Of a DNA stretch of 64,000 bases, positions 8,671-16,926 are shown piece by piece. The DNA is from a bacterium (lineage in GTDB: Bacteria > UBA8248): positions 256,001-320,000 of the forward strand of contig OZ241326.1 of assembly GCA_965199855.1 (NCBI GenBank), in the 5' to 3' direction. Made by a program: the position numbers and the translations under genes. The notes under the pieces were generated by a model. It was given only the letters and a program-made list of their open reading frames with translations, searched no databases and was not told the origin of the DNA. The stretch's first letter is position 1; every line of letters begins with the position of its first letter.

Positions 8671-9447
8671 TCACCCCTTCCAGAAAACCCTCTCTCTCAG
8701 CCAGTCGATTCGCCCGGCGGGGGCGGCGAGGACGGGTTCGGGCGTCTCGCGCCCGTCGGCCAGGGCGGCGTAGTCCACGCGCGCCCCCGAGAGGTAGCCC
8801 ACCGCGCCGCCCGCGCGCTCAAGGACGAGGCCGGCCGCGGCGAAGTCGTAGGCGCGCAGAGGCTCCATCAGGACGCCGAAGGCCGCCCCCGCCGCCGCGA
8901 AGCACAGATGGCAGGCGGCCGAGGCCAGCGCGAGGAAGCGCCCCGGGTAGGCGTGCGAGAGTCCCGCCGCCTCCCCGCAGGGGACGAAGAGGTAGTCGTG
9001 CGGGGCGGGCGCGCCCTGGGCGACGCGCGGCAGCGGCCTCCCGTTGCGGGTCGCGGCGCCATCGGCCGCGGCCGTGAAGGTCTCGCCCAGGGCGGGCATG
9101 TGCACCACCCCCGCCTCGGCGCGGCCGCCCCGCAGGCAGGCGATGGAAACCGCCCAGAAGGGCAGGCCCTTGAGATAGGGCCCGGTGCCGTCGATGGGGT
9201 CTATCGCCCACCAGCGGACGCCCGCGCCGAGCCCGCGCGTCCCGCGCGCCCCGCTTTCCTCCGCCAGGACGGGATCGTCCGGAAACGCGGCGCGAATCTC
9301 CGCGAGGATGAGCGCCTCCGCCTCCCGGTCGGCGCGCGAGACGACGCTCCGCCCCTTGGGTTCGCTCGCCACGCGGCCGGAGAGCGCCTGCGCCCGCGCG
9401 CCCGCCGCCCGCGCCGTCTTCTCCATGAACGCGATGAGGTCGGACAC
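8671..9447 (-). CDS. Inositol monophosphatase family protein
   Basis: AEE, IDPIDGT and YDFAAA..V.E.AGG motifs; GTG start 9447. Confidence 0.88.
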   Translation of the reverse strand: MSDLIAFMEKTARAAGARAQALSGRVASEPKGRSVVSRADREAEALILAEIRAAFPDDPVLAEESGARGTRGLGAGVRWWAIDPIDGTGPYLKGLPFWAVSIACLRGGRAEAGVVHMPALGETFTAAADGAATRNGRPLPRVAQGAPAPHDYLFVPCGEAAGLSHAYPGRFLALASAACHLCFAAAGAAFGVLMEPLRAYDFAAAGLVLERAGGAVGYLSGARVDYAALADGRETPEPVLAAPAGRIDWLRERVFWKG

Positions 9448-9539
9448 CCGCCCCCCCTTTCGTCTGACGCTTCGCCCCCCGCGCCATGATGGAGAACGCG
9501 CCGGGGCATGGCAAGGCGCGCCGGCGAGGCGCGAACATC

Positions 9540-9875
9540 CCGCAGGGGTCGTTCGGGAACGCCCCGCCCCGCCAACCAAACGGATATTCGCCGGGTTGTC
9601 GGCCCATGCCTTCAAAACGGGCGGTTCACGAATTGTGGGGCGGCCTCGGGGAGGCACCGCCCCTGCGAAACCATTGAACCCCTCACGGGCCGTAAAACGC
9701 CCCGCCTCGCATCCCCGCCGATCGCCGGGCGGGACGCATGAATGCGTCCCCTACAAAGGAAAAATCACCACCCGCCCGTAGGGGGCATCCCCGGCCGTCA
9801 TTCCGGCGAAGGCCGGAATCCAGGGTTTTGATTGTCTTCCTGAAAACGGGCGGTTCACGAACCGCCCCTACGAAA
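9540..9875. repeat. REP mosaic (GTAG/GCAG-tagged and CGTC-tagged palindromes)
   Basis: GGGACGCATGAATGCGTCCCCTAC (9731-9754), CGTCATTCCGGCGAAGGCCGGAATCCAG (9796-9823), CGGGCGGTTCACGAACCGCCCCTACG; the same modules recur at 48.7-50.0, 54.6-54.9 and 57.5-58.2 kb. Confidence 0.88.
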
Positions 9876-9900
9876 CCGTTGCCGTCCCGCCGGAATCGAT

Positions 9901-10368
9901 CGCGCATTTGCCCGCATTTGCGGTTATGGGGCTTTCCCCTGAACGCGCGAGAATCCGCCAGCGAGAGGGAGGAGGCGAACGCATGGACTTCGGAATACGA
10001 ATGATGACGAAGGCGAGGGCGTGGGTCAGGGCGTTTGTCGCCCCGCGCCGTTCCCGCGTCATCAATTCCGATGAGAAGGAAGGATTGCGGAATCCGTCAT
10101 TTTCCCGTCGGCCCCGGATTGCGGGTTCCGCAGGCGCGACGCGCGCGCTCCGTTCGCGCCATGATGAAAACGATCCCGTTTTCGACAAAATCCGACAAAT
10201 TCACGCCTTTATCCCGCAAATTCACGCCTTTTTTCGACAAATTCAAGACCCTTCGGAGCGCGGAAAAAATATCAAATCATTGAAAATAAACGGATTATGC
10301 GAAAAAGCGGCGCCGGGAGGGGGTATTTCGCAAGGCCGCGGCATCTGCCCGCATCTGCGCGCATCCGC
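9901..10368 (+). repeat. Dispersed intergenic element, copy 1 (21-bp phased repeats, IHF consensus)
   Basis: Strong reverse-complement match to 48894-49282; CAAATTCA at 10196, 10217 and 10238; TATCAAATCATTG at 10270-10282. Confidence 0.85.
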
Positions 10369-10384
10369 GCCGCCCCGGCGGGAG

Positions 10385-10558
10385 CGTAGGGACAGCCCCC
10401 TTGTGGTTGCCCTTCGCCGCCTCCTCGTCCCGCCGAGGCCCAAAAATCCCGCAGGAGTCGTTCGGGAACGCCCCGCCGTCTACGGATGCGAACCCTTCCC
10501 CAAAACGGGCGGCTCGCGAGCCGCCCCTACGAAGGCGAATCGCGTCCGCCCTCTACGA
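10385..10558. repeat. REP mosaic (GTAG-type palindromes)
   Basis: CGTAGGGACAGCCCCCTTGTGGTTGCCCT, GTCGTTCGGGAACGCCCC and CGGGCGGCTCGCGAGCCGCCCCTACG. Confidence 0.85.
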
Positions 10559-10597
10559 ACGCGGCGCGGGGCGATCGGGGGTCGGACGCCTCCCGGC

Positions 10598-11374
10598 TCA
10601 TCGCCCCTTCCATTCGGGCTTTCGCTTCTCCAGAAAGGCGCGCAGCCCCTCCGCCTTGTCCTCGGTCTCGCAGAGCGCGCCCTGGGCGAACTTCTCGAGC
10701 GCCAGGCCCGCCGTCATGCTCCCCTCCATCCCGAAGTGCACCATGGCCTTCATGAACTGCGGGACGAAGGGCGCGTAGCCCGCCAGCTTCCGGGCCATGC
10801 GCCTTACGGTCGGCAGGAGGTCGTCGGCTTCCACCAGCCGGGTGACGAGGCCGATTTCCAGGGCGCGCTCCGCCCCGATGACCTCGCCCATCAGCAGCAT
10901 CTCCATCGCCCAGGCGCGCCCGACGAGGCGGGGCAGGCGCTGGGTGGCGCCGCCGCCCGGGATGATGCCGATGCGCCCCTCCGGCGTGGCGAATTTCGAG
11001 GCCGGCGTGGCGATTCGCAGATCGCAGCCGAGCGCCACCTCCAGGCCGCCGCCCATGCAGTAGCCGTTGATGGCCGCGATCGTCGCCTTGGGCGTTCTTT
11101 CCAGCCGCTCCGCCACCCCCTGCACCAGCGGGGTGAGCGCGAGGGCGAGATCGCGATGCTCGACCTCCTCCAGGTCCGAGCCCGAGGCGAAGGCGCTCTC
11201 GCCCGCTCCGGTGATGGCGATGGCGCGGACGGCCTCATCCCCGGCGGCTTCGGCGATGGCGGCGTGGAGGTCGTCCAGCGTGGCGAGGGATATGGCGTTG
11301 TGCCGCTCGGGGCGGTTGATGGTGATGAGAGCCAGGGGCCCCTCCGTCTCATACAGCGCGTTCTCGTATGGCAT
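10598..11374 (-). CDS. Enoyl-CoA hydratase/isomerase
   Basis: INRPE..NA, AAINGYCMGGGLE.ALGCD and PE..IG.IPG.G motifs; start MPYEN at 11374. Confidence 0.92.
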   Translation of the reverse strand: MPYENALYETEGPLALITINRPERHNAISLATLDDLHAAIAEAAGDEAVRAIAITGAGESAFASGSDLEEVEHRDLALALTPLVQGVAERLERTPKATIAAINGYCMGGGLEVALGCDLRIATPASKFATPEGRIGIIPGGGATQRLPRLVGRAWAMEMLLMGEVIGAERALEIGLVTRLVEADDLLPTVRRMARKLAGYAPFVPQFMKAMVHFGMEGSMTAGLALEKFAQGALCETEDKAEGLRAFLEKRKPEWKGR

Positions 11375-11409
11375 GGCCGTTCTTTCTCTCTCGCGGCGGG
11401 CGACCGAAG

Positions 11410-12402
11410 CTAGGCGCTCCTCACGACCCGGTTCTTCAGGACGCCGATTCCCTCGATTTCGAGCTCCACCACGTCGCCGGGGCGCAGCCACCGGTCGAGG
11501 TCCGCCCCGCAGCCCGCGGCGACGGTGCCCGAGCCGAACATCTCGCCCGGGAGGAGCTCCTCCTCCATCGAGGCGTACTCGATCATCCCCTCCCAGGAAT
11601 GGTAGGCGTCGCCCGCGTTGCCCCGGCTCCACTCCTCGCCGTTGACGCGGGCCGTCATCACCGCGTCGGCGGGGTCGAACTCGTCCGGCGTGACGATGCA
11701 GGGCCCCACCGCCGTGCCGAAGTCCTTGCCCTTGTGCGGCCCCAGCCAGTTCCTCATCTCCCGCATCTGGATGTCGCGCGCGCTGAAGTCGTTGAGCGCG
11801 CTGAAGCCGAAGACGTGCGCCATCGCGTCCTCTCGGCGGATGTCCCTGCCGCGCTTTCCGATGAACATGGCGAGCTCCAGCTCGTAGTCCAGCTTTTCGG
11901 TGTAGCGCGGCCATTCGAGCTCGTCTTCGGGGCCGATGACGCTCAGGCGGTTTCCCTTGTAGCAGGAGGGCAGCTCATACCAGACGGGGTCGATGGAGAC
12001 GCCGCGCCGCCGCGCGCCGGCGGCCTTGTGGCCTTCGTGGATCAGAAAGTCGCGGAACGAGACGGGACGAGGCGCCGGGGCGCGCAGACGCGCCTCCCCG
12101 AGCGGAAAGGCGAGCCGCTCGCCCCCCGGCCCGCGCCTGCCGGGGTCGGCCAGGATGAACGCCTGCGCCGCCCGCGCGGCCTCCAGGGAGGGCGCGCCGC
12201 CCGCCATGAGCTCGCACATGTCCTGGGGAAGCCTGAAGTCGGCGTATTCCCGAAAGCGGGGCTCCCGCCCCTCCTCCCGAAGGAGGGCGGCGTAGCCGTG
12301 GGCCAGGTCGAGCGCGACCTCCCGCTCCCCGTCCCGCGCCAGCGCGCCAGCGCGCGAGACGGGGCCCAGAGGGGTGGCGACCTCAAAGGTGATGAATTTC
12401 AT
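11410..12402 (-). CDS. Fumarylacetoacetate hydrolase family protein
   Basis: LDYELE, NDFSARDIQ, KGKDF and GSGT motifs. Confidence 0.9.
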   Translation of the reverse strand: MKFITFEVATPLGPVSRAGALARDGEREVALDLAHGYAALLREEGREPRFREYADFRLPQDMCELMAGGAPSLEAARAAQAFILADPGRRGPGGERLAFPLGEARLRAPAPRPVSFRDFLIHEGHKAAGARRRGVSIDPVWYELPSCYKGNRLSVIGPEDELEWPRYTEKLDYELELAMFIGKRGRDIRREDAMAHVFGFSALNDFSARDIQMREMRNWLGPHKGKDFGTAVGPCIVTPDEFDPADAVMTARVNGEEWSRGNAGDAYHSWEGMIEYASMEEELLPGEMFGSGTVAAGCGADLDRWLRPGDVVELEIEGIGVLKNRVVRSA

Positions 12403-12712: not shown

Positions 12713-13309
12713 ATGACGAAAGAGGAAGCGATGCCCCGGTTTTTTCGCCTCAAGCGATTCGCGCCCGCCTCGGCGCTGGCTCTCGCCGTCCTCGCCGCTC
12801 CGGCGGCGTCCTGGGCGGCGAGCGCCCCCCAAAGCGGCTTCGGGGCGTGGCTTTCGGGCTTCAACCTCGGCAGCGGGGCGCTCATCATCAACCCGGTCGT
12901 CATCGCCGTGCAGTGGGCCAACTTCCTGATTCTCCTCCTCATCCTGAACAGGATTCTCATCAAGCCCCTGATGGGCCTCATGGAATCGCGCGACGCGGAG
13001 ATAGCGGGCGACGTCGAGGCCGCCGGGCGGGACAGGAGCGAGGCGGCGGGCTACGTCAGCCAGTATGAGGATTCGCTGGCGGAAATCCGGCGGGAGAACA
13101 CCGAGGCCCTCATCGCCCTCCAGCAGGAGACGGCGGAGACGACCCGCCTGCGCCTGGACGGGATTCGGGAGAGAACGGGCCGCGAGCTGCAGGAAACGCG
13201 CGAGTCCATCGCGGCGCAGGCGCGGGCGGCGGCGGCCGATCTCGAGGAGAGCGCCGGCCGCCTGGCGAGCGAAATCGCCAGCAAGCTCGCGGGCCGCGGC
13301 ATCGGATAA
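12713..13309 (+). CDS. atpF: ATP synthase F0 subunit b'
   Basis: QWANFLILLLILNRILIKPL transmembrane segment then coiled coil; start may be 12731; N-terminal extension. Confidence 0.85.
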   Translation: MTKEEAMPRFFRLKRFAPASALALAVLAAPAASWAASAPQSGFGAWLSGFNLGSGALIINPVVIAVQWANFLILLLILNRILIKPLMGLMESRDAEIAGDVEAAGRDRSEAAGYVSQYEDSLAEIRRENTEALIALQQETAETTRLRLDGIRERTGRELQETRESIAAQARAAAADLEESAGRLASEIASKLAGRGIG

Positions 13310-13324
13310 GGGACGGCGGAAATC

Positions 13325-13918
13325 GTGCTTTCAGCGAAATGGCGCCGGCTTCTTCCGGGGCTTGCGCTCGCGGCGGCGCTCCTGCCGCCGGAGTGCGCTC
13401 TGGCCGCGGCGGCCCACCACAAGGCGTTCAGCCTCACCGAGGAGCTCTTCAAGCTCGTCAACACGCTCGTCGTCGCGGGCATTCTCTACAAATTCGCGTT
13501 CCACCCCATCAAAAACTTCCTGAAGGACAGACGCGAGGGGGTTCGCAGGGCGCTCGAGGAGGCCAGGGCGGGGCGCGAGGCGGCGGAGAAGGAGCTCGCC
13601 GAGCAGAGGGAGAAGGTGGCCGACCTGGAGGCCGAGCTCGATCGCGTCCGCGAGCGGGGCGAAAGCGAGCGCGCCGCGATGCGGGAGAAGCTCGAGGAGG
13701 AGCGGGAAAGCCAGGTGAGCCGCCTGCTGGAGCAGACGAGATCGACCATCCAGCTGGAAGCCTCCCGCGCGAGCGCGGAGCTTCGGAGCCGCGCGGCGGA
13801 GCTGGCGCTGGGTCTCGCCGAGGAGATGCTCAAAAAAGAGCTGGGAGAGGCGGATCAGGAAAGGTTCGTCGAGAACTACCTCGCCGGACTCGACAAGAGG
13901 AACGGAGGCGCGCCGTGA
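13325..13918 (+). CDS. atpF: ATP synthase F0 subunit b
   Basis: VN..V..GILYKF...PI..FL..R then coiled coil; operon context. Confidence 0.88.
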   Translation: MLSAKWRRLLPGLALAAALLPPECALAAAAHHKAFSLTEELFKLVNTLVVAGILYKFAFHPIKNFLKDRREGVRRALEEARAGREAAEKELAEQREKVADLEAELDRVRERGESERAAMREKLEEERESQVSRLLEQTRSTIQLEASRASAELRSRAAELALGLAEEMLKKELGEADQERFVENYLAGLDKRNGGAP

Positions 13919-14457
13919 CGGGCGGCGAGGCGGCGCACCGCTACGCGCGGGCATTGGTGGAAATCGCCGAGAAGCGCGGCGTCCTGGACGAGACCGGAGA
14001 GGCACTGGCCGAGGCCGCGGCCGAACTGCGGGACAGCCGCGAACTGCGGAGCGTCCTGCTCAACCCGCGCTTCGCGCGAAGCGCGCGGGTGAGGATGCTC
14101 GAGGAGATCATGGCCGCGTCGGGCGCGAGCGAGCTGCTCCGCAGCTTCGTGCGCGTGGTCGCCGAGAAGGATCGCGTCGGCGAGCTCTCCGCCATGGCGC
14201 GGAGCTATCAACAGCTGGCGGACGAGAGGCGCGGCCGCGTTCGCGCCCGCGTGAGCGCGGCGCGCGACCTGGGCGCCGACGCCTTGGAGAAGCTGCGCGA
14301 GAAGCTCTCCGCGATGACGGGCAGCGAGGTGCTCATCGAGGTGGAGAGGGATGAAAAACTGATTGGCGGGCTGGTCTGCCGCCTGGGCGGCGTCGTCATG
14401 GACGGCAGCATCAGCAACCAGCTCCGCGGCCTGCGGAGGACGCTGCTTGCGGATTGA
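13915..14457 (+). CDS. atpH: ATP synthase delta subunit
   Basis: A.RYARAL, L.NP and LIGG...DGSI..QL motifs; GTGA overlap with upstream gene. Confidence 0.92.
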
Positions 14458-14498
14458 CGCTCCTTCGGGAGCCGGCTGAAGGATCAAGGGGACAATTC

Positions 14499-16037
14499 AT
14501 GCAGATTCGCGCCGAAGAAATCAGCCAGATCATCCAGAAGCAAATCGAGGGCTTCGACGCCTCGGTCGAACTCGCCGAAACGGGCACGGTCATCTCGGTG
14601 GGCGACGGCATCGCCCGCGTCTATGGCCTGGAGAAGTGCATGGCGGGCGAGCTGCTGGCCTTCCCCGGCGACCTGTACGGGATGGCGCTCAACCTGGAGA
14701 CCGACAACGTCGGCGCCGTGCTCCTGGGCGACGACCGCGCCATCCGGGAGGGCGACGAAGTCAGGCGCACGGGCCGCATCGTTGAGGTGCCGGTCGGCAA
14801 GGCGATGGCCGGCCGCGTCGTGAACGCGCTGGGCCAGCCCATCGACGGGAAGGGGCCCATCGAGACCGAGGACTCGCGGAACCTGGAGGTCATCGCCCCC
14901 GGGGTGGTGGATCGCCAGCCCGTGAAGGAGCCCCTCCAGACCGGGATCAAGGCGATTGACGGCATGGTGCCGATCGGGCGCGGCCAGCGCGAGCTCATCA
15001 TCGGCGACCGGCAGACCGGCAAGACCGCCATCGCCATCGACGCCATCATCAACCAGAAGAACACCGACGTATACTGCATCTACGTCTGCACCGGCCAGAA
15101 GCGCTCCACGCTCGCCCAGGTGGTGGGCACCCTCGAGGAATACGGCGCAATGGACTACACCGTCGTCGTGGCGGCCACGGCGTCCGACCCCGCGCCCCTG
15201 CAATACATCTCACCCTACGCGGGATGCGCCGTCGGCGAGTATTTCCGCGACAACGGAATGCACGCGCTGATCATCTACGACGACCTCTCGAAGCAGGCGG
15301 CCGCCTACCGCCAGCTTTCCCTGATGCTCCGGCGCCCGCCGGGCCGAGAGGCGTATCCCGGCGACGTGTTCTACCTGCACTCCCGCCTGCTGGAGCGCGC
15401 GGCCAAGCTCGGCGACGGGCTGGGCGGCGGCTCGCTTACGGCGCTCCCCATCATCGAGACGCAGGCGGGCGACGTGTCCGCCTACATCCCGACGAACGTG
15501 ATCTCCATCACCGACGGGCAGATTTATCTCGAATCCGCCCTGTTTCACTCGGGCATCCGCCCGGCCATCAACGTGGGCCTCTCCGTCTCCCGCGTGGGCG
15601 GGGCGGCGCAGAACAAGGCCATGAAGAAGGTCGCCGGCACCCTGCGCCTCGATCTGGCGCAGTATCGGGAGATGGCGGCGTTCGCGCAGTTCGGCTCGGA
15701 GCTCGACGCGGCCACCCAGGCGCAGCTCGCCCGGGGTTCCCGCCTCACGGAGCTGCTCAAGCAGCCGCAGTACGCGCCCGAGGTGGTGCATCGCCAGATC
15801 ATGTCGATCTTCCTGGGCACGCAGGGGTATCTGGACGGCGTGGACATCGACGACATTCAGAAGGTGAACGGCGATTTTCTCGCCTTCATGGAGACGAGCC
15901 GCGCGCAGCTGGTGAGCGATCTGGCGGAGAAGCGCGAGCTGACCGACGAGATCACCGAGGGGCTGCGCGCCGCGTGCGAAGAATTCGTGAAAACGCTCAA
16001 GGCGGCCGAGCCGGCGGCCGCCGCCCCGGCCGAATAG
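14499..16037 (+). CDS. atpA: ATP synthase alpha subunit
   Basis: GDRQTGKT and [22 protein letters not shown]. Confidence 0.99.
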
Positions 16038-16044
16038 GTGGAGC

Positions 16045-16926
16045 ATGGCGTCAACCAGGGACTTCAAGCGCCGCATACGCAGCGTCAAGAATACCCAGCA
16101 AATCACGCGGGCGATGAAGCTCGTGGCGGCCTCCAAGGTGCGCCGCGCGCAGGAGCGCATCGAAAGCGCCAGGCCCTACAGCGAGAAGATAGAGGAGCTG
16201 GTGAACTCCCTCGCCGCCAAGGCGCCGCCGGACGTCCACCCTCTTCTGCGCGACGACATGAAGGACGCGAGGGCGCTCCTGCTCGTCATCACCTCGGACA
16301 AGGGTCTCTGCGGGGGATACAACACCAACCTGCTTCGCCGGGCGCTCCAGTTTCTCAGGGAGCGCGAGGACGCGGGCAAGGAGACCGGAATCGCCGTCGT
16401 CGGGCGCAAGGGCCGCGATTTCCTGACGCGCCGGGGCTTCGGGTTCAAGGAGCAGTTCACCGACGTCTACGGGAAAATCGACTTCTCCCTGGCGGCGCGG
16501 CTGACCGAGGTCATGACCGGGGCGTATCTCGAAGAGGGCTTCGATGAGGTCCACGTCCTCACTACGGAGTTTCGCACCATCCTGAGCCAGCGCCCGAGGC
16601 TCTCCCGTCTTCTGCCCCTGGCGCCTTCGGCGCCCGACGCCGTGGACGCGCGGGGCGAGCCCGTGACGGCCGAGCATCTTTACGAGCCCTCCATGCAGGG
16701 CGTGCTCGACGCGATTCTGCCGCGGCACGTGACGGTGCAGACATACAGGTCGCTTCTCGACGCGGAAGCGAGCGAGTTCGGCGCCCGCATGACGGCGATG
16801 GACAACGCCTCCCGAAACGCGGAGGAGATGATCGGGACGCTCACTTTGCAGATGAACCGCGTGCGCCAGGCGTCGATCACCACGGAGCTGCTCGAGGTGG
16901 TGGCCGGAGCTGACGCGCTCTCCTGA
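16045..16926 (+). CDS. atpG: ATP synthase gamma subunit
   Basis: ITRAMKLVA, SDKGLCG, ARMTAM and RQASITTE. Confidence 0.99.
   Translation: MASTRDFKRRIRSVKNTQQITRAMKLVAASKVRRAQERIESARPYSEKIEELVNSLAAKAPPDVHPLLRDDMKDARALLLVITSDKGLCGGYNTNLLRRALQFLREREDAGKETGIAVVGRKGRDFLTRRGFGFKEQFTDVYGKIDFSLAARLTEVMTGAYLEEGFDEVHVLTTEFRTILSQRPRLSRLLPLAPSAPDAVDARGEPVTAEHLYEPSMQGVLDAILPRHVTVQTYRSLLDAEASEFGARMTAMDNASRNAEEMIGTLTLQMNRVRQASITTELLEVVAGADALS

Follow-up and report, generated by a model that had tools for sequence, protein, structure and literature searches.

What is an intergenic element of 468 bp that occurs twice, in opposite orientations, within one 64,000-nt stretch of a bacterial chromosome (hereafter the window; positions 256,001 to 320,000 of contig OZ241326.1), and why does it keep repeats phased at exactly 21 bp? 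An earlier note on this DNA took it for a non-autonomous mobile or nucleoid-organising element and pointed to three CAAATTC cores, a match to the IHF consensus after an A-tract, direct decamers at both ends, and the REP mosaics in which both copies lie. We examined the element in its source genome (G000, a single contig of 3.04 Mb with 67% G+C) and in comparison genomes (G001, G002 and so on), among them 22 congeners. The structural description proved accurate in every part, and the features are as follows, in window coordinates.

9901-10368, plus strand: copy A, which aligns with copy B over its whole length
9904-9923, plus strand: left decamers GCATTTGCCC GCATTTGCGG, a head-to-tail pair; candidate activator-binding site at about -58 to -39
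9949-9954, plus strand: -10-like hexamer GAGAAT, exactly 26 nt after the left decamers
9967-9985, plus strand: purine-rich leader GGGAGGAGG, 7 nt, then ATG; a doubtful start of a small ORF
10010-10140, plus strand: variable GC-rich centre, with REP-like insertions or replacements and deletions among the 18 aligned copies
10166-10252, plus strand: module, made of a hairpin-like word GAAAACGATCCCGTTTTC and GACAAAAT / GACAAATTCAC / GCAAATTCAC / GACAAATTCAA
10196, 10217 and 10238, plus strand: CAAATTC cores, exactly 21 bp apart, with the same spacing in copy B
10264-10310, plus strand: AT-rich patch, containing the IHF-consensus match TATCAAATCATTG at 10270-10282
10341-10370, plus strand: three direct right-end decamers GCATCTGCCC GCATCTGCGC GCATCCGCGC, with no -10 behind them
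49282-48889, minus strand: copy B, shortened by deletion (79-nt internal gap relative to copy A)
49279-49261, 49234-49229 and 49082-49002, minus strand: left decamers, GAGAAT and module of copy B
48983-48971 and 48911-48882, minus strand: IHF-like site and right decamers of copy B
8671-9657, minus strand: flanking gene of the inositol-monophosphatase family (Pfam PF00459, E 6e-37)
10598-11368 (open frame to 11914), minus strand: flanking enoyl-CoA hydratase gene (Pfam PF00378, E 1e-61)

REP hairpins stand on either side of both window copies, and the cassette formed by copy A is aimed at the 3' end of the enoyl-CoA hydratase gene. The IHF-like words of the two copies, TATCAAATCATTG in copy A and TATCAACTCATTG in copy B, both fit WATCAANNNNTTR after a run of A. 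Short-read contigs of four DNA runs break at the repeats, and one contig joint skips 9831-10423 (runs X3 and X4), which could reflect a different allele or could merely connect other copies of the repeat.

Family size and the phased array

The two window copies belong to a larger family. A BLASTN search of the whole genome recovered 14 full-length copies (77-100% identity, query included) and four more that are shortened or altered, three by internal deletions, copy B among them, and one by replacement of its left half; the view of a dispersed element outside the named families stands. With an nhmmer profile we obtained 90 matches in the genome at E<=0.01, a figure that counts diverged relatives and partial modules: seven are diverged relatives of the same layout, and about 30 are places that match the CAAATTC region alone. 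The copy number of the 468-bp element is far above chance and far above two.

Conservation within the family is uneven. The mean pairwise difference is 0.03 in the -10 region, which is the most conserved segment, 0.05 in the module and 0.06 in the decamers, and it rises to 0.24 in the promoter spacer and 0.31 in the centre, the highest value of the element. The IHF consensus is found at the same place in 14 of the 18 family copies; the phased repeats and the IHF-like site are selectively kept.

We then defined the module by an 81-bp profile, which matches 57 places at E<0.01; 107 of the 236 CAAATTC words of the genome fall inside these matches. When a decamer site is counted at <=3 mismatches, a promoter-type site is aimed at the module in 54 of the 57 places, in one of two arrangements. 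F1 (n=25, including the 468-bp family) has this site upstream and in the same orientation, 118-373 nt from the module, while F2 (n=29), a second repeat family of about 330 bp, has it on the other side of the module at 177-230 nt. Read on the minus strand, the module resolves into GAATTTGTCG, GAATTTGCGG, GAATTTGTCG and GATTTTGTCG, four units whose offsets are 0, 21, 42 and 52; each agrees with the decamer of the promoter motif in 7-9 of its 10 letters. Decamer-like words inside modules lie on the strand opposite CAAATTC in 124 of 125 cases, and those outside promoters and modules number 227 compared to 250 in a reversed control; since the pattern was written after both motifs had been seen, its enrichment in modules is partly circular. 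Since the array may face either way with respect to the promoter-type site, a role at the level of DNA is the simplest reading. We conclude that the genome carries about 54 scattered, probably non-coding cassettes.

The DNA around the array has a composition of its own, with a GC content of 0.45 at 10141-10310 compared to 0.67 for the genome. The module and AT-rich patch also show an AA/TT periodicity of 10.5 bp that exceeds 500 of 500 shuffles, which predicts that this DNA is curved. Among the 45 matches to the IHF consensus in the whole genome, 14 are the family site, although these 14 do not count as independent support since the copies share descent. The consensus is absent from F2 and is inverted in three diverged F1 relatives. 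The genome encodes four HU/IHF-family genes, and IHF may bind at the AT-rich patch. As for the right end, 15 such ends match the left-end 19-mer at <=3 mismatches, and a -10-like hexamer 25-27 nt further on is missing from all 15; the decamers there form a third array that lacks a -10.

A left-end motif shared with phage-type operons

The earlier note had treated the left decamers as an end repeat, but they are part of a promoter-like motif common to phage-particle operons. The 19-mer GCATTTGCCCGCATTTGCG, invariant within the 468-bp family, occurs exactly 33 times in the genome and 77 times with <=3 mismatches. Nearly every exact occurrence is followed 26 nt on by a -10-like hexamer, which is GAGAAT in the 468-bp family and TATATT, TAGATT or CAGAAT elsewhere. 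Such a hexamer stands 25-27 nt after the decamers at 23 of the 25 F1 sites, and a TATATT-type hexamer is present in all 29 aligned F2 units. The 77 sites comprise 25 F1 sites, 29 F2 sites, 15 right ends and eight others, and five of these eight stand before phage-type operons.

Is this motif a promoter? We saw no -35 at the decamer sites, and a generic scan of 9600-10700 for sigma-70 promoters and terminators returned none of either. This empty scan is compatible with a promoter that lacks a -35, yet it lends no support to one, and GAGAAT is a weak -10. On the other hand, decamers at about -58 to -39 have the geometry of an activator-dependent promoter, and the motif may be active as one. Regulators of the OmpR/PhoB type use tandem 10-bp direct repeats, and the resemblance of the decamers to such sites is an analogy rather than an identification of the activator; the genome has only two OmpR-type regulators, both far from the phage loci. 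Readings of the motif as a sigma-54, DnaA-box or CtrA-box site gave no convincing match by eye.

The five operons preceded by the motif are separated from one another by housekeeping genes and contain the following.

Phage operon 1: a head protease-capsid fusion and a tail tube/minor tail gene
Phage operon 2: large terminase and portal
Phage operon 3: lysozyme and a holin-like ORF
Phage operon 4: five unassigned genes, taken as tail parts
Phage operon 5: tape measure protein

The large terminase belongs to the lambda-gpA type; in G000 its gene is broken into two frames that overlap, so that the particle system may be decaying in this genome. A small-terminase-like gene (weak matches to Mu gp27 and phrog_426) lies near the lysis cassette and lacks the decamer motif.

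The same footprint is found ahead of capsid, terminase and tail-like orthologues in six congeners (G001, G007, G014, G015, G019 and G020), where the decamers, the 25-26-nt spacing and TATATT or TAGATT are kept while the spacers differ. The capsid gene is single-copy in 20 of the 22 congeners, and relatives with 41-70% identity are present in five genomes of other genera. In the two congeners in which the capsid was not found, G008 and G009, decamer sites number 0 and 1, which is the level of the reversed-pattern control. G020 has 45 decamer sites. G015 has the capsid and three decamer sites, all three before phage operons, and G019 has the capsid and five, at least two of which stand before phage operons. 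In both G015 and G019 the phage genes persist although dispersed cassettes are few or absent, so the particle genes do not require cassettes. Beyond the genus, the motif has no matches at <=3 mismatches in G024, G025, G029 and G032, three of which have the capsid, and G023 has five weak matches, each with three mismatches. Taken together, the gene content and scatter of these operons suggest that they form a domesticated particle system of the gene-transfer-agent (GTA) kind.

Proposed regulon cassettes and competing readings

From these observations we propose that the element is one cassette of a genus-wide intergenic class that belongs to the late regulon of scattered, domesticated, GTA-like phage-particle genes, an explanation to which we give nearly, though not quite, an even chance of being right. 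Under this proposal, a DNA-binding activator would occupy two to three head-to-tail 10-bp repeats at about -58/-68 to -39 and would recruit RNA polymerase to a promoter that has a -10 and no -35. Transcription would then cross the poorly conserved leader into the four related decamer-like sites of the array, which would sit in helically phased, AT-rich DNA beside an IHF-type site. The sites of the array would be weaker than those of the promoter motif. Together with the promoter-less third array at its right end, each cassette would present as many as nine clustered sites to proteins of a single family. In cis, the cassettes may offer the late-gene regulator extra binding and looping sites, as a sink or auxiliary-operator network that times the particle genes; this role is much less certain than the assignment of the cassettes to the regulon.

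To place the cassettes in related genomes, we mapped 30 decamer loci of G001 (18 loci), G007 (4) and G014 (8) onto G000, which was possible for 46 flanks of 29 loci. Twenty-four of the 46 flanks project within 1.5 kb of a G000 promoter-type site, compared to a chance expectation of 0.06 per flank, and 19 of these 24 have the same orientation as the G000 site. Seven of the 24 concern phage operons and 17 concern dispersed cassettes, and several agree within 6-24 bp. At the site of copy A, cassettes of the local type lie next to the hydratase orthologue, on the same side and in the same orientation, in G001 and G002, while in G019 and G020 we found no cassette within about 5 kb downstream of that orthologue. 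For copy B, a G001 cassette (L028_R) projects 345 bp away in the same orientation.

The positions are shared, and most of the sequence is not. The three cassettes at the hydratase locus have only the decamers and module core in common, the cassettes of G001, G002, G007 and G014 share only the promoter-type site and module core with the G000 element, and BLAST in 18 of the 22 congeners found mostly the first 22-70 nt of the element. Identity of 77-91% within G000 together with species-specific interiors at shared sites means that the cassettes have been homogenised or replaced in place since the species split, and concerted evolution anchored on the conserved blocks appears to be the likeliest process. 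Often the flanks of one G001 cassette have their counterparts in two widely separated parts of G000, each of which carries a cassette (L041, for example), which suggests that recombination between copies has rearranged the chromosome. Since only the promoter-type site and array are conserved between species, and the array lies either way round, the working parts would be protein-binding DNA rather than an RNA or protein product.

Of the other explanations, the one that survives best holds that the element is a selfish or neutral repeat, a promoter-bearing phage fragment that spread to REP-rich 3' intergenic "safe" sites and persists there, homogenised by gene conversion, without a role for the host or the particle system. 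We regard this as unlikely but as a serious contender. The cassettes do sit in long, REP-filled spacers, and 16 of 24 F1 cassettes point at the 3' end of the next gene; their copy number varies widely among congeners, G015 and G019 have the phage genes without the expansion, and REP-like pieces have been inserted in the centre. However, the promoter parts and the module are far better conserved than the remainder of the element, and at syntenic sites nothing else has been kept between species. Both observations argue for constraint, but a biased gene conversion tied to these blocks could mimic it.

A second alternative makes the cassettes cis-acting DNA-handling sites, either packaging starts of the pac or cos kind or transcription-activated iteron origins, at about 57 evenly scattered points from which GTA-like machinery would package the chromosome or amplify it. 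The combination of three to four phased direct repeats, an AT-rich tract and an IHF-type site does recall lambda cosB, P1 pac and iteron origins, and transcription would be aimed at the array. Modules occur in all parts of the chromosome, with 3-7 in each 250 kb, and the particle genes include the lambda-gpA-type terminase and the weak candidate for a small terminase. A coupling of run-off replication to packaging is reported for the Bartonella GTA in the source cited here (10.1101/2024.11.20.624540). On the other hand, no initiator gene was noticed beside any cassette, the neighbours looked at being ordinary metabolic genes, and no module lies at the terminase or small-terminase-like genes. 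The orientation of the array to the promoter-type site is mixed, the modules show no replichore or strand bias over the whole chromosome, the best DnaA-box-like word fits 6 of 9 positions by eye, and the expansion is absent in G015 and G019. The resemblance of the array units to the regulator's own decamer favours a regulator-binding role, and we consider DNA-handling sites a decidedly unlikely explanation.

Could the element instead yield a protein or a structured RNA? Both a coding function and a folded RNA are unlikely. As a small-protein gene family, the element would use its promoter, the leader GGGAGGAGG and the ATG at 9983 to express a protein of about 100-160 residues, in which the 21-bp repeat would appear as a heptad peptide repeat (DKIRQIH AFIPQIH AFFRQIQ). 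A strong Shine-Dalgarno-like purine tract with an ATG is indeed present in 17 of the 18 copies, and a purine tract followed by ATG recurs in several diverged F1 subfamilies. The distance from ATG to module falls into five length classes (196, 211, 217, 235 or 79 nt), all in one frame, with copy B alone breaking the frame (126 nt, through its 79-nt internal gap). This constancy is left unexplained by a purely non-coding reading. However, GC3 is 0.58 compared to a median of 0.88 for called genes, and there is no clear third-position excess (0.093/0.110/0.126 and 0.084/0.063/0.111). There is no conserved stop, and the frames diverge after the module and run into REPs; the same frame has a TAA inside the module in G002, G007 and G014, and it is closed within 9-30 codons at loci that have only the module. 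A G001 cassette lacks the ATG, and F2 has the purine tract without a conserved start. Pfam gave no match for the long frame or the small ORF, and the only database proteins that match are 15 with 65-98% identity, which are copies of the same repeat. We therefore give a small protein only a slight chance. A second frame, which reads DKFTxFFDK across species, was dropped since the codon at its start varies among cassettes, being ATG in some but CTG or GTG elsewhere.

The chance is slighter still that the cassettes are trans-acting small RNA genes, whose F1 and F2 transcripts, carrying the module in opposite senses, could pair or sequester an RNA-binding protein. The conserved promoter-type site, the complementarity of the F1 and F2 module regions, and repeated GUCAAAGGG-like words in the F2 leaders all fit such genes. 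However, folding is no better than that of shuffles (z +0.19 and -0.24 for the two strands), and consensus folds of 14 copies contain 1-2 compensatory pairs compared to 8-13 pairs broken in at least one copy; the covariance check proposed in the earlier note thus spoke against a conserved structure. An Rfam scan of 9000-11500 at E<=1 gave three chance-level matches, far under the gathering scores, with no family threshold reached. The transcribed spacer is not conserved between species, and no terminator-like site was found in 9600-10700. Type I toxin-antitoxin loci of the LDR/Sib type, which have a conserved small hydrophobic toxin ORF with an antisense RNA, were also considered and rejected, since the ORF here is basic, and neither its stop nor its sequence is conserved from one subfamily or species to another.

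The slimmest chance of all goes to a mobile element, one of the two options of the earlier note, taken here as a non-autonomous transposon (MITE or PATE-like) with the decamer arrays as transposase-binding ends: it would account for a dispersed, multi-copy element with repeats at both ends and an IHF-type site set among REPs, but we found no terminal inverted repeats in the 14 full-length copies (longest inverted word between ends 5-9 nt, the end decamers being direct), no target-site duplication (shared word in a copy's own flanks 5.7 nt on average vs 6.1 nt for mismatched flank pairs) and, by BLASTN and nhmmer over the genome, no longer, autonomous copy with a gene between the same ends, and the sites, and for the most part the orientation, are common to sister species.

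Significance and known systems

If the regulon-cassette explanation is right, it bears on how GTAs stay silent in most cells and fire in few, and on whether they choose the DNA that they package, both of which are open questions. Dozens of small non-coding cassettes are connected with five phage-particle operons by one sharply defined motif, and this link is found in at least five sister species as well. The cassettes are also a case of a dispersed repeat whose positions stay fixed although each genome renews the sequence, a point that matters when intergenic repeats in metagenome-assembled genomes are interpreted. Even if the cassettes are inert passengers, the result still gives the regulon motif for a phage-particle system that had not been described before, in a phylum from which no sponge-associated member is in culture. 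In our literature searches, neither these repeats nor a GTA from the lineage turned up. The kinds of element involved, an intergenic repeat and a GTA regulon with many chromosomal sites, are known; their combination here is new as far as we can tell.

A bolder extension of the regulon proposal, which we think improbable, is that the cassettes are the chromosomal arm of the GTA-like system. The F2 family carries 10 of the 12 parS-type sites of the genome, and in this extension the regulator and DNA-handling proteins would reach every part of the chromosome through about 54 late-promoter cassettes, of which ten are fused to parS sites. If so, the cassettes might form a decoy network that sets an all-or-none threshold for particle production, or alternatively serve as local start sites of amplification or packaging, which would make this a sequence-directed rather than a random transfer agent. 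The species-specific interiors would then reflect ongoing homogenisation, possibly driven by particle-mediated exchange of DNA.

Several known systems resemble the cassettes in part. The BIMEs of enterobacteria (RIB/RIP class) are intergenic, dispersed mosaics built of REPs with an IHF site, and the element is like them in being intergenic, dispersed, mosaic and REP-associated, in its IHF-type site, and in having species-specific sequence at recurrent sites. Unlike BIMEs, it is not built of inversely oriented REP hairpins; its conserved parts are decamer arrays, and it carries the phage-operon promoter motif and a 21-bp-phased array. The Correia/NEMIS elements of Neisseria are short dispersed repeats with an IHF site, promoter activity, terminal inverted repeats and a TA target duplication. 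The 468-bp element is likewise short, dispersed and non-coding, with an IHF-type site and a putative promoter, but it has neither the terminal inverted repeats nor the target duplication.

Iteron-type origins, such as those of pSC101 and R6K and lambda ori, usually have the initiator gene adjacent. Like these origins, a cassette has direct repeats (three to four, phased at about 21 bp) with an AT-rich tract beside them, an IHF-type site, and predicted transcription toward the site. The cassettes differ in that no initiator gene was noticed in cis, in their number of about 57 on one chromosome, and in units that resemble the site of the promoter's regulator. Auxiliary operators and titration loci, such as lac O2 and datA with its IHF site, are single loci in their genomes. 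Like these, the cassettes would be extra clusters of regulator sites away from the main site, aided by bending of the DNA, but here the arrangement has been copied about 54 times, each copy with its own promoter-type site.

The last comparison is with the GTA of Caulobacter crescentus, where the activator GafY is reported to bind 20 chromosomal regions, 18 of which are co-occupied by IHF (PMC11150451). As in the GafY/IHF system described in that source, domesticated particle genes at several loci would here be under one activator with many chromosomal sites (PMC11150451). The system described here, known from sequence alone, differs in its tandem 10-bp repeat, its -10 at a fixed 26 nt and its lack of a -35. 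Unlike the GafY/IHF system, it has about 62 promoter-type motifs, and about 54 of these lie in repeated non-coding cassettes that carry a second, related array.

Phage-morphogenesis and lysis operons

One promoter motif is common to five dispersed phage-morphogenesis and lysis operons of the genome under study (G000), with housekeeping genes lying between them. The phage-operon regions are as follows:

774001-794000 of contig C1 (locus L011)
794001-806000 of contig C1 (locus L061)
2574001-2594000 of contig C1 (locus L012)

At these loci, a portal gene is followed by a ParA-like ATPase gene, and two overlapping minus-strand frames (15442-16500 and 14804-15928 of L011) make up the split large terminase. 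The set of five phage operons under a single motif looks like a gene-transfer-agent-like system.

L012 also carries three closely similar tandem gene copies of about 200 codons each (12900-14830), with a lipoprotein-like N-terminus; the tail-like operon lies on one side of them and the tape-measure promoter on the other. The frame near the end of the third copy seems disturbed.

parS-like sites and possible exchange at cassette copies

A genome-wide search of G000 found 12 parS-like sites, all of the variant TGTTCCACGTGGAACA and none within the window. Ten of the 12 lie inside cassettes of the second repeat family (F2, ~330 bp), just upstream of the decamer promoter, and are dispersed from 23 kb to 2.36 Mb, while the remaining two adjoin a ParB gene at 376.8 kb. 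A parS site joined to a dispersed repeat, far from the origin, is an unusual arrangement. Examples from the genome-wide set, all outside the window, are:

C1:931186, parS-like site
C1:1129721, parS-like site
C1:2225598, parS-like site

When single cassettes of the congener G001 were compared with G000, their left and right flanks mapped to different, distant regions, each of which holds a cassette (471, 1180 and 2738 kb in G000, compared with G001 loci L041, L026 and L030). This split mapping suggests that the chromosomes have been rearranged through recombination between copies.

At the 468-bp element in the window, one contig from each of two DNA sequencing runs, X3 and X4, connects 9830 to 10424 across a stretch of unknown letters and leaves out the element together with part of the REP on either side. 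Either an alternative allele or the joining of other copies of the repeat could account for this joint. The central part of the element (window 10010-10140), like the corresponding part of other copies, has received REP-like pieces by insertion or exchange. The five length classes all differ by multiples of three, a pattern in the centre that a non-coding reading does not explain.

Cassette variants in congeners

In the congener G019, four or five CCCGGGAAAAC-type repeats of 11 bp stand downstream of two decamer sites, at L065 and L068, in place of a CAAATTC-type module; the phasing is the same, but the repeat word is different. In G001, at least 13 of the 18 loci examined (L015, L024, L026 and others) carry near-identical copies of that genome's cassette family. 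These G001 cassettes lack an ATG and carry a terminator-like hairpin and U-run directly 3' of the -10-like hexamer, which recalls late promoters that need antitermination.
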